Assembly: GCA_041740795.1 (NCBI GenBank)
Contig: JBGSLH010000012.1
Location: forward strand, 19,146-83,145
Direction: 5' to 3'
DNA from: Minisyncoccia bacterium
GTDB taxonomy: Bacteria; Patescibacteriota; Minisyncoccia; Phycocordibacterales; JAACPR01
Length of the DNA: 64,000 nt
The stretch's first letter is position 1. Each line of letters starts with the position of its first letter. Positions 3,845 through 63,112 of the stretch are shown here, piece by piece. The notes under the pieces were generated by a model. That model was not told the origin of the DNA, did no database searches, and saw only the letters and a list, made by a program, of their open reading frames with translations. Made by a program: the position numbers and the translations under genes.

Positions 3845-4582
3845 ATGAAGAAAAGAAAGCTCACTCTCCTCTGGATACTTCTCATATTTGTTTTCATATA
3901 TCTTAATCGAACCTATGCGCATATTTACAACACGATAGATACGGTTTCGCTTCAATCTCCGCCAATGGAAATGAAATATGACCTCGGTAATACTTCCCAA
4001 AAACTTCTCACCTACGTCGCGATAGGTGACAGTCTCACTGCTGGTGTCGGTGTTGATGAATTCACACAGTCATATCCGTATCTGCTTGCCAAACAGATTG
4101 CTGATACGGACAAACACGTTGTACTTCACACGTTTGCGGTACAGGGTGCACGAAGCGATACAGCACGTAATTTCATTGATTCTGCAGTGGCGGTTCAGCC
4201 TGACATCATTACAATTCTAATCGGAGTGAATGACATACACGGAAATGTTTTTAAAAAGAAATTCCAAAAAAACTACGAACAGATTCTAACAAGGCTCACG
4301 ACCGAAACTCGTGCCAAAATCTATCTGGTCGCCATCCCGTATATCGGTGCGTCAGATCTGATACGTTTTCCATATTCGTATTATTTTGAATACCAGACCA
4401 AGAGATTTAATGAGACTGTCCAAGAGCTTGCAGACACATACTCGGCTCAATATATAGATTTGTACACACAGACCCATACCCAAGCATATTCCAAGGAGTA
4501 TTATTCTGCAGACTTGTTTCATCCATCACCTGCAGGATATACTCAGTGGTCCGATATCCTCTATGACAGTATCAATCATTAA
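3845..4582 (+). CDS. SGNH/GDSL hydrolase, membrane-anchored
   Basis: Block I AIGDSLTAG, block III GVNDI, block V DLFHPS. N-terminal TM segment. Confidence 0.8.
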   Translation: MKKRKLTLLWILLIFVFIYLNRTYAHIYNTIDTVSLQSPPMEMKYDLGNTSQKLLTYVAIGDSLTAGVGVDEFTQSYPYLLAKQIADTDKHVVLHTFAVQGARSDTARNFIDSAVAVQPDIITILIGVNDIHGNVFKKKFQKNYEQILTRLTTETRAKIYLVAIPYIGASDLIRFPYSYYFEYQTKRFNETVQELADTYSAQYIDLYTQTHTQAYSKEYYSADLFHPSPAGYTQWSDILYDSINH

Positions 4583-16206: not shown

Positions 16207-16279
16207 GTCAGAGTAGCTCAGTTGGTAGAGCATTCGCCTGAAGAGCGAAGGGTCACCGGTTCGACCCCGGTCTCTGACA
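16207..16279 (+). tRNA. tRNA-Phe (GAA)
   Basis: Acceptor GTCAGAG/CTCTGAC, anticodon loop CTGAAGA, T-loop TTCGACC. No encoded CCA. Confidence 0.9.
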
Positions 16280-16372
16280 CAGAAATTTAAGGATAAGGAT
16301 CTATACATTCGTGATGTCGCGACGCTTACTATTTTGAGCTCCTTGCGAAAAATAGTAAGCAAAGTCGACCAC
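16280..16372 (+). repeat. tRNA-trailer repeat, copy 1
   Basis: The first 49 nt, CAGAAATTTAAGGATAAGGATCTATACATTCGTGATGTCGCGACGCTTA, match the sequence after tRNA-Leu(UAG) at 45163-45115 (- strand) with 1 mismatch. Both copies end in GTCGACCAC. Confidence 0.8.
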
Positions 16373-20386: not shown

Positions 20387-21601
20387 TCAGTATGACAGGT
20401 TGCCCTGAGCCGTTATTTCTGGGTTAATCGTGGCCATCGTATTGAGAGACTCGATCGCACCAGCAACTGCAATCATCTGTGCGTTGTCGGTGGAATCGGA
20501 TATCTTGGGCAAAAGGAGAGGAATTTTCATTTGATGAGCAAGTTGTTCCACTTGTGTTCTAAGGTAAGTATTAGCAATGACACCACCAGATATTATGAGG
20601 GTTTTGTACTCACCTTGTTCAAATGCCTTGTTGATTTTGTACAAAATGACATCTGTGATTGCCTGTTCAAACTCGTGCGCAATGTTCATTTTAAGGGTAT
20701 CGGTAAGAGTCTCGATCTCCTTCACTTTGTAGAGTACGGAAGTTTTTAGTCCTGAAAATGAAAAGTCCAAGTCCTTGGTGTGGAGCATCGGACGAGGAAA
20801 CGTGAAGTCGCCGCTGCCGATACTTGAGTGCCGAGCGAGCGCAGCGAGCTCGGCGATCTTGGGTCCGCCAGGATATTCAAGTCCGATCATACGCGCGACT
20901 TTGTCGTACGATTCTCCGATTGCATCGTCTTTTGTTTTTCCTATAATTGTAAAGTCAGAAACGGAATTCATTTCGACAAGTTCGGTATGTCCGCCCGAGA
21001 TCAGGAATGCGAGTGTTGGGAACTTGATCTCTGTCTGGTTAAGTAGTACAGAAAATATATGCCCCTTCATATGGTTGGCTGGAACGAGCGGAATATTCCA
21101 GTACAGAGAAAGTGCGCGCGCAAAGCTGATGCCGACCCAGAGAGCTGGCTCGAGTCCTGGGCCTTGGGTAACTGTTAATAGATCAATGTCAGGCTTGGGA
21201 TACTTCAGAAGAAGCTCCTTGGTTTTTTCAAAAAGTCCGACTTCGCGTTCGAGGAGTTTTTCTATCTGAGACCACCTGTCATCCTGCACAGATTCGTCGG
21301 TAGACGAATCGTGTTGTGGGACCATGTTAGAATAATCACGAGATCCCGCATCTTCGCCTGTCTGCGACAGACTTCGTGCGGGATGACATGTTAATATTTT
21401 TTCCAACAACAAAGGTAACCACTTCGCATGTTCTCTTTTTGCAACTGCAGGGAAGACACCTCCGAATTCTTTATGGATGTCGATTTGTGAAAAGAGTTCA
21501 CTTTGAATCTCTCGCGCCGTGATACGTGTATCAGAAATCTGCACGTCTACAAGAGCGATACCTGTCTCATCACAAGATGTTTCTATTGCGAGGATTTTCA
21601 T
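20387..21601 (-). CDS. tsaD: tRNA N6-adenosine threonylcarbamoyltransferase TsaD (404 aa, with an internal insertion)
   Basis: MKILAIETSCDETGIALV, GPGLEPAL, SGGHTELV, ISGGVIAN. Confidence 0.9.
   Translation of the reverse strand: MKILAIETSCDETGIALVDVQISDTRITAREIQSELFSQIDIHKEFGGVFPAVAKREHAKWLPLLLEKILTCHPARSLSQTGEDAGSRDYSNMVPQHDSSTDESVQDDRWSQIEKLLEREVGLFEKTKELLLKYPKPDIDLLTVTQGPGLEPALWVGISFARALSLYWNIPLVPANHMKGHIFSVLLNQTEIKFPTLAFLISGGHTELVEMNSVSDFTIIGKTKDDAIGESYDKVARMIGLEYPGGPKIAELAALARHSSIGSGDFTFPRPMLHTKDLDFSFSGLKTSVLYKVKEIETLTDTLKMNIAHEFEQAITDVILYKINKAFEQGEYKTLIISGGVIANTYLRTQVEQLAHQMKIPLLLPKISDSTDNAQMIAVAGAIESLNTMATINPEITAQGNLSY
21278..21387 (-). mobile_element. Composite palindromic element inserted in frame in tsaD
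   Basis: On the + strand: GTCATCCTGCA..TGTGGGA, a loop, then CGAGATCCCGCA..TGCGGGATGAC. Translated through as HPARSLSQTGEDAGSRDYSNMVPQHDSSTDESVQDD. Homologous to 62721-62832. Confidence 0.7.
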
Positions 21602-29416: not shown

Positions 29417-29787
29417 CGTCATTCCCGCGAAGGCGGGAATCCAGGCTTTATTTTTTCTTGAGCAAGGGATCGTATTATTAAAAACATGAAGGAAAGTTAC
29501 GTATACATACTTGCCAGCGATAGAAACGGAACTTTATATGTTGGTGTAACAAGTGATCTTGATAAAAGAATACAGGAACATAAATTAAAGATACGAAAGA
29601 GCTTTACGCAAAAATATAATGTAGATAAGTTGGTTTATTACGAGGTACATTTTGATATTCAGACCGCAATTCATAGAGAAAAGTGTATAAAGAAATGGAA
29701 TAGAAAGTGGAAGATAGATCTTGTTGAAAGTATGAATTTGCAATGGGAAGACCTGAAACCTGGATTCCCGCCTTCGCGGGAATGACG
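29417..29787 (+). mobile_element. GIY-YIG gene bracketed by exact 29-bp inverted hairpin repeats
   Basis: CGTCATTCCCGCGAAGGCGGGAATCCAGG at 29417-29445 is the exact reverse complement of 29759-29787. Each arm is itself a hairpin, ATTCCCGC-GAAG-GCGGGAAT. Confidence 0.7.
29486..29785 (+). CDS. GIY-YIG nuclease superfamily protein (YhbQ/UPF0213-like)
   Basis: YVYILASDRNGTLYVGVTSDLDKRIQEH. The C-terminal residues PGFPPSRE and the stop codon are encoded by the right repeat. Confidence 0.85.
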   Translation: MKESYVYILASDRNGTLYVGVTSDLDKRIQEHKLKIRKSFTQKYNVDKLVYYEVHFDIQTAIHREKCIKKWNRKWKIDLVESMNLQWEDLKPGFPPSRE

Positions 29788-30440: not shown

Positions 30441-30485
30441 ATAGTGTCTTACGTTATCACGAATCTTAAAAACATGCAATTAGCA

Positions 30486-30624
30486 CGTCATCCCCGCGAA
30501 GGCGGGGATCCAGTCCATAGTAGAAAAATATTATTGGGGTTGTGTAAAGACTAGTTACTACTGTTCTCTGAAAGTTACTGTTTAACGCAAGTGATCCTGG
30601 ATTCCCGCCTCCGCGGGAATGACA
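30486..30624. repeat. ORF-less inverted doublet of the hairpin repeat
   Basis: CGTCATCCCCGCGAAGGCGGGGATCCAG at 30486-30513 and CCTGGATTCCCGCCTCCGCGGGAATGACA at 30596-30624, in inverted orientation, 82 bp apart. Confidence 0.75.
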
Positions 30625-33007: not shown

Positions 33008-33051
33008 CTTCTGTTTATTACGAGATTCCGGAATAAATCCGGGATGACAGA

Positions 33052-38428: not shown

Positions 38429-38484
38429 CGTCGAAAAAAATGCACCTATACAATTATAATTGTATAGGTGCATTTTTTTCGACG
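38429..38484. terminator. 56-nt perfect palindrome after gyrA
   Basis: CGTCGAAAAAAATGCACCTATACAATT-AT-AATTGTATAGGTGCATTTTTTTCGACG. Confidence 0.65.
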
Positions 38485-44766: not shown

Positions 44767-44839
44767 TGCGCCCACTTGGATTCGAACCAAGGACCATCCG
44801 CTTAAGAGGCGGGTGCTCTACCAGCTGAGCTATAGGCGC
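44767..44839 (-). tRNA. tRNA-Lys (CUU)
   Basis: Acceptor GCGCCTA/TGGGCGC, anticodon loop CTCTTAA, T-loop TTCGAAT. Confidence 0.85.
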
Positions 44840-44882
44840 ATGTATGTGGGAACGGTATGTGGCAGATTGTACGCTGCCCATG

Positions 44883-44964
44883 TGCTCGGGACGGGGGTCG
44901 AACCCGTATCCCTTACGGGACAAAATTTTAAGTCTTGCGCGTATACCAATTCCGCCACCCGAGC
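44883..44964 (-). tRNA. tRNA-Leu (UAA)
   Basis: Acceptor GCTCGGG/CCCGAGC, anticodon loop CTTAAAA, long variable arm. Confidence 0.85.
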
Positions 44965-45067
44965 AAGGTATTGCTATAGTATCAAATAAAAAGATAAAAT
45001 CAAAAGGAAATGATGGGACTTGAAAATAATGACGGTAACGCAATGCGGTACCGTCATTATTTTCAAT

Positions 45068-45163
45068 GTGGTCGACTCTGCTAAGCCTTTTGTCGCTAGG
45101 TAGCTCCAGAAGTCTAAGCGTCGCGACATCATGAATGTATAGATCCTTATCCTTAAATTTCTG
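45068..45163 (-). repeat. tRNA-trailer repeat, copy 2
   Basis: Starts directly after the tRNA-Leu(UAG) discriminator base. 48 of its first 49 nt are identical to 16280-16328. Ends in GTCGACCAC. 3 nt longer than copy 1. Confidence 0.8.
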
Positions 45164-45245
45164 TGCCGAGGAGAGGACTTGAACCTCCATGGGTCACCCC
45201 GCTTGCTCCTAAGGCAAGTGCGTATACCAATTTCGCCACCTCGGC
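45164..45245 (-). tRNA. tRNA-Leu (UAG)
   Basis: Acceptor GCCGAGG/CCTCGGC, anticodon loop CTTAGGA, long variable arm. Confidence 0.85.
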
Positions 45246-55349: not shown

Positions 55350-56756
55350 ATGAAAAAATTAATTATAAATTTAAGCTTTATCTTCATTGCATTTCCTGCA
55401 GTGACATTTGCTAGTGGCGGATGGTACGGGGACGATTATTCTTATGACAGCAACAGCTGGTACGGAGATGACTATTCATACGGCAACAACAGCTGGTACG
55501 GAGATAACTACTCCTATAATTCGTCACCATGGTACGGGGATGATTATGGATATGACAACGGAAGCTGGTACGGAGATGACTATTCATACGGCAGCAACAG
55601 TTGGTACGGAGATAACTACTCCTATAATTCGTCACCATGGTACGGGGATAATTATTCATACGATAATTCCTATTACGCAAGTAACAACAACTACAATTAC
55701 AACAATTACGACTACAGTAATTACGACTACTCAAACTATGGGTACAACGACTATGATTACGGGTATAACGACTACGATTATGGGTATGATAATTACGACT
55801 ATGATTATAATGATCAGTATGCGTACAACTACGATTATGGATATAACTACGATTATAACCAGGATTATTACTACGACTATGGATATGATTACAACGAATG
55901 TACAACTTGTTCATGTCAGAACAATTGTTATAACGATGATGATGATTGTCGTTCAAACTGTACACCTCCTCCAACATACGACGATCTCGACCTTGTCTGT
56001 GTAGTATCTGATCGGAACGTAGAAGAAGGGGAATCTGTAACATTTACTGCAGAAGCTGACGGCGGAAGTGGTTCATACACCTACCGATGGTCTGGAGATG
56101 TTTCTGGTTCAAGTCGAATCATCAACACTCGATTTAACTATGAAGGAACATACTATGGAACTGTCAGAGTGACAGATTCACGTGGTAAGACCGCTACTGC
56201 AAACTGTTCATCAGTTGTCGTAGAAGAAGAGGAGGACGAGGACTTTGACGCAGTATGTAAGGTTTCAGATTCTTCAATCGAAGAAGGAGACCGAGTTACA
56301 TTTACTGCAGACGTTGACGGTGGAGACAGTCCATTCGATTACGATTGGTCTGGAGACGCTGACAGTTCAAGTCGAAGTTTTAGTAAGACGTTCAGTCGAT
56401 CTGGAACATACGAAGTTGACCTTAAGGTGATTGACGACGAAGGTCGTGTTGCTCGGGATACATGTACTGTTCGAGTAAAGGATGAAGATGAGGATAATGA
56501 CAACGATCGAGATATTAATGTCGTTGCCCGAACCAATCCTTCAAACAACGATGGTAACTTCGCTTCTGTCGACTCAGTATATCTGAACCAGGTTCCATAC
56601 ACTGGACCTGAAGACGTAGCAAAGGGAATTGCCTTTGCTGTCGGAATTCTCGCTTGGAGTATCGGTGGAGCGCTTATCATCCGAAACAAGATGGATAAGA
56701 AAGCAGTTTCAAACCGAATCGAAGCATTCAAGAGTGCGAACAAGACAAACGTCTAA
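55350..56756 (+). CDS. Secreted surface protein: D/Y/N-rich repeats, two PKD-like domains and a VPYTG-type sorting signal
   Basis: Signal peptide, 8 copies of SWYGD[DN]YSY, a YDYxNYDY tract, two 80-aa repeats VTFTA..GG...Y.WSGD (PKD-like), then VPYTG followed by a TM and RNKMDKK. Confidence 0.75.
   Translation: MKKLIINLSFIFIAFPAVTFASGGWYGDDYSYDSNSWYGDDYSYGNNSWYGDNYSYNSSPWYGDDYGYDNGSWYGDDYSYGSNSWYGDNYSYNSSPWYGDNYSYDNSYYASNNNYNYNNYDYSNYDYSNYGYNDYDYGYNDYDYGYDNYDYDYNDQYAYNYDYGYNYDYNQDYYYDYGYDYNECTTCSCQNNCYNDDDDCRSNCTPPPTYDDLDLVCVVSDRNVEEGESVTFTAEADGGSGSYTYRWSGDVSGSSRIINTRFNYEGTYYGTVRVTDSRGKTATANCSSVVVEEEEDEDFDAVCKVSDSSIEEGDRVTFTADVDGGDSPFDYDWSGDADSSSRSFSKTFSRSGTYEVDLKVIDDEGRVARDTCTVRVKDEDEDNDNDRDINVVARTNPSNNDGNFASVDSVYLNQVPYTGPEDVAKGIAFAVGILAWSIGGALIIRNKMDKKAVSNRIEAFKSANKTNV
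55413..55896 (+). repeat. Coding low-complexity tandem repeats (36-bp unit, 108-bp higher order)
   Basis: Reiterated AGCTGGTACGGAGATGACTATTCATAC-type units, then TAYGAYTAY-rich sequence. Confidence 0.85.
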
Positions 56757-62100: not shown

Positions 62101-62364
62101 TCTGGTTCGACGTGCATCCATTCGTTCCTTGTCCTTGCGAGTTCGTGCTGCGACATACGCATCGATTCCAATAATAGGCTTAATATTATTTTCAAGACAT
62201 TTTTTATAAAAATCTATCGCTCCGTATAAGTTTCCGTTATCAGTAAGTGCAAGTGCCTTTTGACCGTCAGCAACTGCTGCAGCGATCAGATCCTTTATCT
62301 TTGGAAGGGCAGTCAAAAGACTATAATGGCTGTGCACGTGCAAATGGGAAAAGGGTTTGCTCAT
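59194..62364 (-). CDS. dnaE: DNA polymerase III alpha subunit
   Basis: PHP domain FSHLHVHSHYSLL, polymerase core and OB fold. Start trimmed to MSKPF, 7 nt after TATAAT. Confidence 0.95.
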   Translation of the reverse strand: MSKPFSHLHVHSHYSLLTALPKIKDLIAAAVADGQKALALTDNGNLYGAIDFYKKCLENNIKPIIGIDAYVAARTRKDKERMDARRTRLILLVKNEVGYKNLIQIVTDSHLDGFYYKPRIDRELITKHHEGLICISPSFNSEIVNALAMSNKERALEILAYYKETFGDDFYIEITHHPEIEGHEGRMSLIKEFAKETGTKLVAASDVYYIKPEDRDARRTLMSVQSSFGGDAGVDDEENFSFISQKEANQYFKDIPEALDNIQEVIDKCNIELELGNWVFPAIDLEGRLAKDVLREKAFAGIERRKMEPTESLLKRVEYELDVIETKGYSPYFLVVGDLIRYAKEAGIQSNTRGSAAGSLVSYLVGITTVDPIEYGLPFERFLNPERPSPPDIDMDFADNRRDDMIEYARRTYGAHNVAQIGTFGKMLAKGAVRDTARAMGFDYAKGDAIAKLIPLGAQGFPMTIKRALDDTPELAELYKTDADSKVIIDMARKIEGCARHIGVHAAGVVISPTTMTDFVPVQMDPKGEGKIITQYDMHSVEEAGLLKFDFLGLKNLSIIAQTVKMADKLYGEKIDVDEIPLDNKNTFDMLARGETEATFQLNGDGMTRFLKELKPSNIHDINAMVALYRPGPLAFIPDYIERKHNPEKVVYFDAKLKPYLETTYGILIYQDDILLIAVNLAGYSWGEADKFRKAVGKKIPEEMVKQKEKFIKGCIEVGGFSEDNTHKLWDMIETFAAYGFNKAHAAAYGRVAYLTSYLKANYPVLYMASVLTADSGDVDKIATMVHECERMGITVLPPDINESFADFGVVPGERGKEIIRFGLTTIKNFGQGIADAIIKERKENGKFVDLEDFFTRVVDRNLNKKSLEALIKTGAFDSLNPDRALLLHNFENLLKFNKEIAKADADQDSLFTSSSIEISHLHLEPGPTISKQEMLGWEKELLGLYVTGNPLDQFKDLLTNGHTVEKIKAESKDGVTLVVAGIIEECKPILTKKGAPMAFLKIKDYTDSLECVCFPKVYEKYKDIIEGDGCIAVKGTISVRNGEKSILVDKIKKLE

Positions 62365-62383: not shown

Positions 62384-63112
62384 ATGGCAAAGGATTTAAG
62401 GTGGACAACTCAATACATCATTGGTGTAGACGAAGCAGGACGGGGCCCGCTTGCGGGCCCCGTTGCTGTCGGTGTTTCTTTTGTTCCAAAACTCTATCAA
62501 AAACAGGTATTTTCTTTTCTTAAAAAGGCAGGACTTAACGATTCTAAGCAAGTCAAAGAAGTGACTCGAGAATCACTGTATAAGACACTTGTCCAACTCA
62601 GAAAGGAACAAAAGTTAGACTGGGCAGTAACACTCGTCCCTGCAAAAATTATTTCAACCAAGGGGATTGTGTTTGCTGTTAATTTTGGAATAAAAATGGG
62701 GTTGCAGAAAGTTTTAGCACGTCATCCCGCAAGAAGTGGCTCCGTAGGAGGAACGAAAATGCGGGATCTCGCTATAAAAAATTACGAGATCCCGCAACTT
62801 CGCCGGCCTACGGCCGGCTCGTGCAGGATGACACGTAACATAGAACTCGAAATGGACGGAGCACTCAAAATTCCACCAGGAGAATGGAAAAAAGCATCAG
62901 TCATAATTAAAGGTGATTCAATTAAGCCAAGTATTATGATTGCATCTATACTTGCAAAAGTGACACGCGACAGATATATGAAAAAGATTTCAAAAATTTA
63001 TCCTCAATACTTGTTTGAAATTCACAAGGGATATGGAACCAAAAAGCATCGAGATTTGATTAAAAAATATGGAATGAACAAGGAACATCGGGTAGGGTGG
63101 TGTAAGTACTAG
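62384..63112 (+). CDS. rnhB: Ribonuclease HII (with an internal insertion)
   Basis: IIGVDEAGRGPLAGPV, KGDS, ASILAKVTRD, HKGYGT. Confidence 0.85.
   Translation: MAKDLRWTTQYIIGVDEAGRGPLAGPVAVGVSFVPKLYQKQVFSFLKKAGLNDSKQVKEVTRESLYKTLVQLRKEQKLDWAVTLVPAKIISTKGIVFAVNFGIKMGLQKVLARHPARSGSVGGTKMRDLAIKNYEIPQLRRPTAGSCRMTRNIELEMDGALKIPPGEWKKASVIIKGDSIKPSIMIASILAKVTRDRYMKKISKIYPQYLFEIHKGYGTKKHRDLIKKYGMNKEHRVGWCKY
62721..62832 (+). mobile_element. Composite palindromic element inserted in frame in rnhB
   Basis: GTCATCCCGCA..TGCGGGATCTCG, a loop, then CGAGATCCCGCA..TGCAGGATGAC. Translated as HPARSGSVGGTKMRDLAIKNYEIPQLRRPTAGSCRMT. Confidence 0.7.

Follow-up and report, generated by a model that had tools for sequence, protein, structure and literature searches.

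An in-frame CGTC-tagged repeat dimer, most likely translated, in the RNase HII gene of a Minisyncoccia bacterium

The RNase HII gene (rnhB) of a Minisyncoccia bacterium very probably carries a non-autonomous CGTC-tagged REP / NTS-like (SRM) dimer, which lies in frame in the DNA of a surface loop and is most likely translated. By its sequence, the element joins two CGTC-tagged REP units head to head, with their tags facing outward. The repeat family, dimer anatomy, in-frame position, empty alleles and intact predicted core fold can each be seen directly in the alignments and structural model described below. The gene lies in a 64,000-nucleotide stretch of contig JBGSLH010000012.1 (GCA_041740795.1), the whole of which we call the window. 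The gene and its element are laid out as follows.

62384..63112, plus strand: rnhB (RNase HII) ORF of 242 aa from the ORF list, open start at 62357 or 62384; hosts the repeat element
62714..62720, plus strand: upstream extension TTAGCAC, conserved, 5' of the left unit
62720..62771, plus strand: left REP unit, with tag CGTC at 62720-62723 and tail CTCG at 62768-62771
62724-62731 paired with 62760-62767: outer stem of the left unit, ATCCCGCA with TGCGGGAT, 8 bp, 0 mismatches
62740-62750: inner hairpin CTCC-GTA-GGAG within the 28-nt loop of the left unit
62772..62784: spacer CTATAAAAAATTA, 13 nt, AT-rich, encoding part of AIKNY
62785..62833, minus strand: right REP unit, inverted, with tail CGAG at 62785-62788 and tag TGTC (minus-strand reading) at 62830-62833
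62789-62796 paired with 62822-62829: stem of the right unit, with one C/A mismatch
62803-62819: inner hairpin of the right unit, GCCGGCC-TAC-GGCCGGC

The ORF at 62384-63112, whose product is P0001 by protein match, matches Pfam PF01351 at 7.6e-27. The first-pass annotation had quoted the sequence of 62721-62832, which reads exactly so, and no stop occurs across the element in the rnhB frame (translation ..QKVLARHPARSGSVGGTKMRDLAIKNYEIPQLRRPTAGSCRMTRNIELEMDG..). The gene is intact, because its frame meets no stop in the element and the net change in length is divisible by three. The TTAGCAC at 62714..62720 probably belongs to the element as well; TTAGCRY stands immediately 5' of GTCATCC in each of the four filled rnhB alleles with available DNA, though their elements differ, and it also precedes the intergenic unit at 30480. 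The GC content of the element is 56%, against 39% for the rest of rnhB and 42% for the window. A 124-nt stretch folds at -61.4 kcal/mol, compared with -34.3 +/- 3.4 for dinucleotide-preserving shuffles (z = -8.0). An identical rnhB gene with the same insert is present in a separate Logan assembly (L124, SRR28170465), so an assembly artefact is unlikely.

AlphaFold models the RNase HII core with confidence (mean pLDDT 82.7, pTM 0.82). Residues 111-150 have pLDDT values of 48-67 and no secondary structure, with values above 90 on both sides. The insert residues, 111-153, lie between helix 95-112 and strand 153-158, which bears the invariant catalytic Asp158. This agrees with the earlier placement of the segment between the ..MQRAVAGL helix of the E. 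coli RnhB alignment and the strand with the catalytic Asp. Foldseek matched the model to solved RNase HII structures at TM scores of 0.65-0.76 on the target, namely 3o3g of T. maritima and 7uwe of E. coli; mapped onto structure, as had been proposed, the predicted core matches solved RNase HII, and the low-confidence insert falls between well-predicted elements. Alignment to E. coli RnhB is broken only at the insert, where 74 query residues stand against 34. The insert is most likely transcribed and translated as a disordered surface loop of 43 residues (111-153) in place of a 9-residue loop. A word-indexed protein search with the 42-aa insert peptide returned no candidates, and HMMER run in full with the 43-aa peptide against 1.84 billion representatives, a weak test for so short a query, returned none at E <= 0.001; the insert is therefore taken not to be a conserved protein domain.

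Alleles without the element exist. The closest RnhB homologues fall into two groups, of 203-215 aa without the insert and 227-248 aa with it, and the search for empty sites found two syntenic genes lacking the insert whose products (P0004, from L001, and P0006, from L004) are 79-80% identical to the protein in the window. The gene order in L001, dnaE-rnhB-(...)-rpmF-nusB, is the same as in the window. Where the window has 43 codons (LARHP...MTRNI), the empty alleles have 9 (KSSSFEKET or KSQQYEKET), a net difference of +102 nt. Thus, the extra residues that the first-pass annotation had described are present, but its figure of about 37 aa is not; because 43 codons stand where empty orthologues have 9, the net gain is 34 aa rather than a clean 37. 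An empty tsaD allele (L130/P0125) gives the same picture. No target-site duplication was found in the filled/empty comparisons of either rnhB or tsaD; in these comparisons, the host loop has lost 5-9 codons, which do not reappear beside the element. The lack of a clean footprint counts against the insertion reading. Relatives of the long-loop unit occur elsewhere, in L003, L125 and L126 and in the proteobacterial MAG contigs L016 and L020. The alternative to a repeat insertion had been framed as an ordinary lineage-specific loop, to be expected if all related rnhB genes held an equivalent insert and the genome no further copies. Since empty alleles and other genomic copies were both found, the repeat-insertion reading is supported.

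Two other features of these loci were observed. An ORF of 373-400 aa with no Pfam match lies between rnhB and rpmF in L001 (3675-4877) and L129 (4739-5860) and is absent from the window. Directly 5' of rnhB, L003 carries a reverse transcriptase gene and a bAvd-like gene (111-1827), which together look like a diversity-generating retroelement.

The window holds a second element of the same kind.

21278..21387, minus strand: second dimer, in frame in the tsaD ORF 20387-21601 (minus strand)
21339-21388: intact unit of the tsaD dimer; the other unit is degenerate, and both tags are TGTC

The tsaD ORF stays open through its element, which folds with z = -5.7 relative to shuffles. Pairwise alignment of the rnhB and tsaD elements gives 83/112 identical positions when both are read in one direction and 81/112 when one is reverse-complemented, with an alignment score of 43 vs -16.6 +/- 4.7 for shuffles. 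The close match that had been claimed between the right half and the tsaD copy amounts to 79% over 43 nt. The terminal motif GTCATCCCGCA, with at most one mismatch, occurs five times where 0.69 are expected, and four of the five are ends of the rnhB and tsaD elements. Within the window, the octamer ATCCCGCA is confined to these two elements, which are also its only long-loop dimers in 64 kb; we found no nuclease gene flanked by long-loop units.

We compared nine long-loop units from five contexts, with window rnhB, window tsaD, L003 rnhB, L125/L126 tsaD, L020 (a Thiohalobacter MAG) and L016 (a Caulobacterales MAG) as sources. The unit consists of a (C/T)GTC tag, an 8-bp stem (ATCCCGCA/TGCGGGAT), a loop of 25-28 nt with a hairpin of its own, and a CTCG tail. 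The outer stem and the flanks of the loop (CGAAG ... CGAAGA) are conserved in all nine. The inner hairpin is entirely different in sequence in each unit and always complementary. The right unit of the window rnhB element differs at three positions from the right unit in L003 rnhB, in host genes that are only ~75% identical. Outer stem and loop flanks are identical in the long-loop units of L020 (4167-4297) and L016 (6236-6275), which come from MAGs labelled Proteobacteria; in L020, the long-loop unit is paired with a different unit, again with tags outward. A scan of genome contigs with CGAGATCCCGCANYTTCG, which is too short a pattern, gave 118 loci, nearly all of them chance matches in GC-rich genomes, and the real units among them were those of L016 and L020 only. 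A 26-base gapped pattern, which is too strict, found one metagenome contig, whose length and unit positions are those of L020, and a scan of viral contigs gave zero matches.

A direct repeat, CGAAG...CGAAG, flanks the inner hairpin at 62732-62759 and 21351-21376 in the window and in L020 at 4167-4216. The pattern resembles what would be left if the ancestral loop had been 5 nt long and was duplicated when a small hairpin entered it.

Shorter units of canonical form are also present in the window, two of them beside a nuclease-like gene.

29417-29444, plus strand: canonical SRM CGTCATTCCCGCGAAGGCGGGAATCCAG, left flank of the GIY-YIG ORF
29486-29785, plus strand: GIY-YIG ORF, 99 aa, single domain, Pfam PF01541 at 8.7e-18
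29760-29787: inverted SRM CGTCATTCCCGCGAAGGCGGGAATCCAG, containing the stop codon of the GIY-YIG ORF
30486..30624: two intergenic canonical units, at 30486 and 30597, both close variants of CGTCATTCCCGCGAAGGCGGGAATCCAG, tags outward, 83-nt spacer
33021..33049, minus strand: single intergenic unit TGTC-ATCCCGGA-TTTAT-TCCGGAAT-CTCG, between convergent genes

The segment 29417..29787 is a candidate autonomous relative. The nearest solved relative of its ORF by sequence is the UPF0213 protein BH0048 (1zg2, E = 0.0024), and the units that flank the gene are of the canonical rather than the long-loop type. The short intergenic repeats had been thought to share the stem of the rnhB element, but this did not hold: their stems (ATTCCCGC, ATCCCCGC, ATCCCGGA) are related and different. 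The canonical units of the window end in CCAG. The unit at 33021 has the stem TGTCATCCCGGATTTATTCCGGAATCTCG and a CTCG tail like that of the rnhB units. The published SRM motif, HGTCWYN(0-2)YYVSBRHN(0-5)WNVSBRGN(0-2)RNCYNB, has three matches in the window (29417, 29760 and 30486) vs 0.2 expected; in the same scan, the rnhB units, the tsaD units and the 33021 unit gave no match, which in the rnhB and tsaD units is because of the long loop. We also considered GAAAAAATA as a shared target motif. It occurs nine times in the window with inconsistent geometry relative to the units, and therefore has no support as a target.

These properties place the element among described repeats. CGTC-tagged REPs have a CGTC or TGTC tag (a CCTC variant is also known), a stem of 8-9 bp that begins with AT, a loop of 4-5 nt and a tail that is mostly CCA; they are mostly dimers with tags outward (HH) and conserved spacers, and they include Neisseria dRS3/NTS as well as RPE-4 and RPE-6 of Rickettsia conorii (Di Nocera, De Gregorio & Rocco 2013, PMC3733652). 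Most are intergenic, and some lie in frame in genes, often those of replication and repair, where they encode 20-43+ aa (PMC3733652). In-frame dimers that encode 20-30 aa are on record. The elements described here share the tag (CGTC in the left rnhB unit, TGTC in the right and in both tsaD units), the stem (8 bp starting AT, with no mismatch on the left and one on the right) and the layout, with tags outward and AT-rich spacers of 9-13 nt in rnhB, tsaD, L003, L125, L127, L128 and L129. They differ in the loop, which here is 25-28 nt long with a covarying inner hairpin where the family has 4-5 nt; in the tail, here CTCG where the family mostly has CCA; and in the host, which belongs to the Parcubacteria (CPR), outside the five phyla surveyed (PMC3733652). 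Long self-complementary loops have been described only in certain GTAG families and in a small number of CGTC variants (PMC3733652). Judged from this anatomy, the rnhB element is a long-loop member of a known repeat family in a known kind of situation.

In Neisseria, NTS is bound as single-stranded DNA and cut upstream by SsnA, a 94-aa GIY-YIG nuclease that needs a conserved sequence upstream of the repeat (Chenal et al. 2025, PMC11893778). Homologues of ssnA are typically flanked by SRMs in an IS-like manner, with the layout NTS-ssnA-NTS in 42%, and only 2% of Neisseria NTS copies lie inside genes (PMC11893778). The canonical units of the window have exactly the form of NTS, the GIY-YIG gene of ~99 aa has one of them on either side, and a conserved sequence precedes the tag in both systems. 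Two differences should be noted: the rnhB units do not fit the published SRM motif, and the nuclease of the window is putative.

Similar situations are known from other repeat systems. RPE-1 of Rickettsia was reportedly described by Ogata and colleagues in 2000. Like RPE-1, the rnhB element is a palindromic repeat of ~100-150 bp placed in frame in a housekeeping gene, most likely translated, and in a predicted surface region. The rnhB insert has the marks of such an element, namely an intact ORF, empty orthologues (L001 and L004) and a predicted surface loop. It differs in belonging to a separate sequence family, and whereas Rickettsia sites are shared by descent, here two loops hold differing subfamilies. 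With REP/BIME and RAYT systems and with MITEs, the system in the window shares a short hairpin repeat, a small nuclease gene flanked by repeats, and non-autonomous copies that outnumber the gene; it differs in that the nuclease is of the GIY-YIG type rather than an HUH or tyrosine transposase, and in that no target-site duplication was seen and mobility is putative.

A family known from Proteobacteria (Neisseria, Rickettsia, Wolbachia) is thereby extended to Patescibacteria. Neither of the two papers cited above covers the host phylum. We found no publication in which REP repeats and CPR names occur together, which is not proof of absence, and recognition has been possible only since the discovery of the Ssn nuclease in 2025. 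These are very small genomes, and the repeats sit inside essential genes. For annotation, the family accounts for odd GC-rich inserts of 30-45 aa (HPxxxGxP...LDSRLRGND) in CPR housekeeping proteins.

Other explanations deserve weighing against a single translated dimer. The dimer could instead be two independent single-unit insertions on either side of six original host codons (AIKNYE). Host-like residues do add up to 6 + 4 = 10 in the window protein and in P0002, the same as in the empty sisters; P0010 retains a host-like KSKYVE between two repeat pieces; and single units stand alone in P0013 and at 33021. However, the CGAG tail and the AAT(C/T)A that precedes it recur in dimers of unrelated host genes, as AATCACGAG in window tsaD and L003 rnhB and as AATTACGAG in window rnhB, AT-rich spacers of 9-13 nt are likewise seen in L127, L128 and L129 and in dimers of other subfamilies, spacers like that of the rnhB element (TAATATTAATCA, TTAGAATAATCA and GAATAAAATCA) stand in dimers of other genes and genomes, and conserved spacers are reported for tags-outward dimers in general (Di Nocera, De Gregorio & Rocco 2013, PMC3733652). 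Spacers that are alike across genes and genomes are therefore element-borne and not host-derived. We rejected AIKNYE as host sequence on these grounds, the spacer and tail recurring in the dimers of other genes, and consider two separate insertions improbable. A history of one ancient insertion per loop, followed by gene conversion from the active family of each genome and by repeated precise loss, seems to us less improbable than that, if still rather unlikely. It would fit the identical left junction TTAGCRY-GTCATCC of all four sequenced filled rnhB alleles and the presence of one subfamily in both genes of the window genome, and likewise in P0025/P0132; some 'empty' TsaD loops, such as KQVQDD, also resemble decayed repeat ends. 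By contrast, empty RnhB loops are homologous across the tree (K-x-x-x-x-E-K), which points to emptiness as the ancestral state, and every filled allele has an empty sister, although this comes from an unbootstrapped NJ tree and is weak.

The remaining alternatives have far less in their favour. The element might be lost from the RNA like an intron, from the peptide like an intein, or through translational bypass, to leave a mature RNase HII without the loop. In yeast mitochondria, ribosomes bypass palindromic GC-rich inserts in AT-rich genes, and the hairpin in the rnhB mRNA would be very stable (-61 kcal/mol). However, the insert is in frame and free of stops in rnhB, in tsaD and in every homologue seen, and 112 nt or 37-43 aa are far too small for group I/II introns or inteins. 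Bypass would not need the change in length to be divisible by three, as it is here, and an Rfam scan at E <= 1 gave nothing above noise, with only a miRNA-model match at 20 bits vs a threshold of 80 (best E = 0.25). Removal is, on this evidence, very improbable. Lower still, to the point of being negligible, is the probability of an ordinary lineage-specific protein loop that is palindromic by chance. Loop length does vary among RNase HII proteins, and nothing else speaks for it; we exclude it because of the fold z-scores (-8.0 and -5.7), the second copy in tsaD, the empty alleles, the jump in GC, and the same units in intergenic positions and in distant phyla.

We therefore retain a single non-autonomous dimer in the loop DNA as the preferred reading. 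The repeat would spread through hairpin formation in single-stranded DNA, with a small GIY-YIG nuclease of the Ssn type acting on it in trans; the candidate gene lies 33 kb away. The activity shown for Ssn is cleavage of single-stranded DNA (Chenal et al. 2025, PMC11893778); a role in moving repeats is hypothetical. Since enzymes of the GIY-YIG class do nothing but cut, repair or recombination by the host would have to supply the copying step. Selection would then leave only those insertions that are in frame and in permissive loops.

The same two loops are occupied in other genomes by different repeat subfamilies. At least 11 of the 60 closest RnhB homologues carry an insert at the same position. 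The insert types are HPREGGDP...LDSRLRGDD (canonical units), HPELVSGS..., HPGLVPGS..., a single unit in P0013, and mixed dimers such as that of P0002. Among the filled rnhB alleles with DNA, the junction follows directly on the same codon, the one after Lys, in four of four. In an NJ tree computed without the loop, filled and empty RnhB alleles are interleaved, each filled allele with an empty sister; as the tree is unbootstrapped and built on ~200 residues, this interleaving is weak and only suggestive. TsaD homologues have diverse units after LLEKIL in many lineages and are empty there in others. P0025 (JGI contig Ga0451681_0000062) and P0132, probably two proteins of a single genome, share the HP(R/H)VD..DPG type, just as rnhB and tsaD of the window genome share the long-loop type.

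Occupation of the same loop by different subfamilies may reflect repeated site-directed insertion, recombinational transfer of alleles, or an old insertion with later gene conversion. Tentatively, and as a possibility rather than a likelihood, the RnhB loop (after GLxK(I/V/L)) and the TsaD loop (after LLEKIL) could be recurrent landing pads for Ssn-associated hairpin repeats across Parcubacteria, which the active subfamily of each genome repeatedly colonises or overwrites, replacing the host loop, and where decayed repeats become lineage-specific protein segments. If so, REP-type repeats would spread in a site-directed, homing-like manner or in connection with recombination or transformation, and some of the additional protein segments that characterise CPR bacteria would have originated from them. 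Regardless, two loops with different subfamilies are a natural data set for the movement of repeats and the origin of protein segments, and the recurrent occupation of two essential-gene loops across Parcubacteria is the part most worth following.

In the TsaD gene of L128 (1501-2754, P0132), and also in P0134, the repeat 'head' (GATGACGTAAYTG...) is reiterated ~5x on the 3' side of the dimer with a 21-nt period. The reiterated heads are in frame and give VGSEDDV-like peptide repeats. They could have been left behind by a nuclease site that was cut and repaired again and again.

Repeats of other kinds were also observed in the window. A perfect palindrome of 56 nt lies at 38429-38484, its 28-nt arms 100% complementary with no spacer between them. 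Coding tandem repeats occur at 1482-2238, as three to four copies of ~213 nt, and at 55421-55910, where the periods are 36, 21 and 15 nt and codons for Tyr, Asn and Asp are abundant. Long inverted matches between the regions 16214-16330 and 44782-45185 are tRNA gene-like (TAGCTCAGTTGGTAGAGC...).
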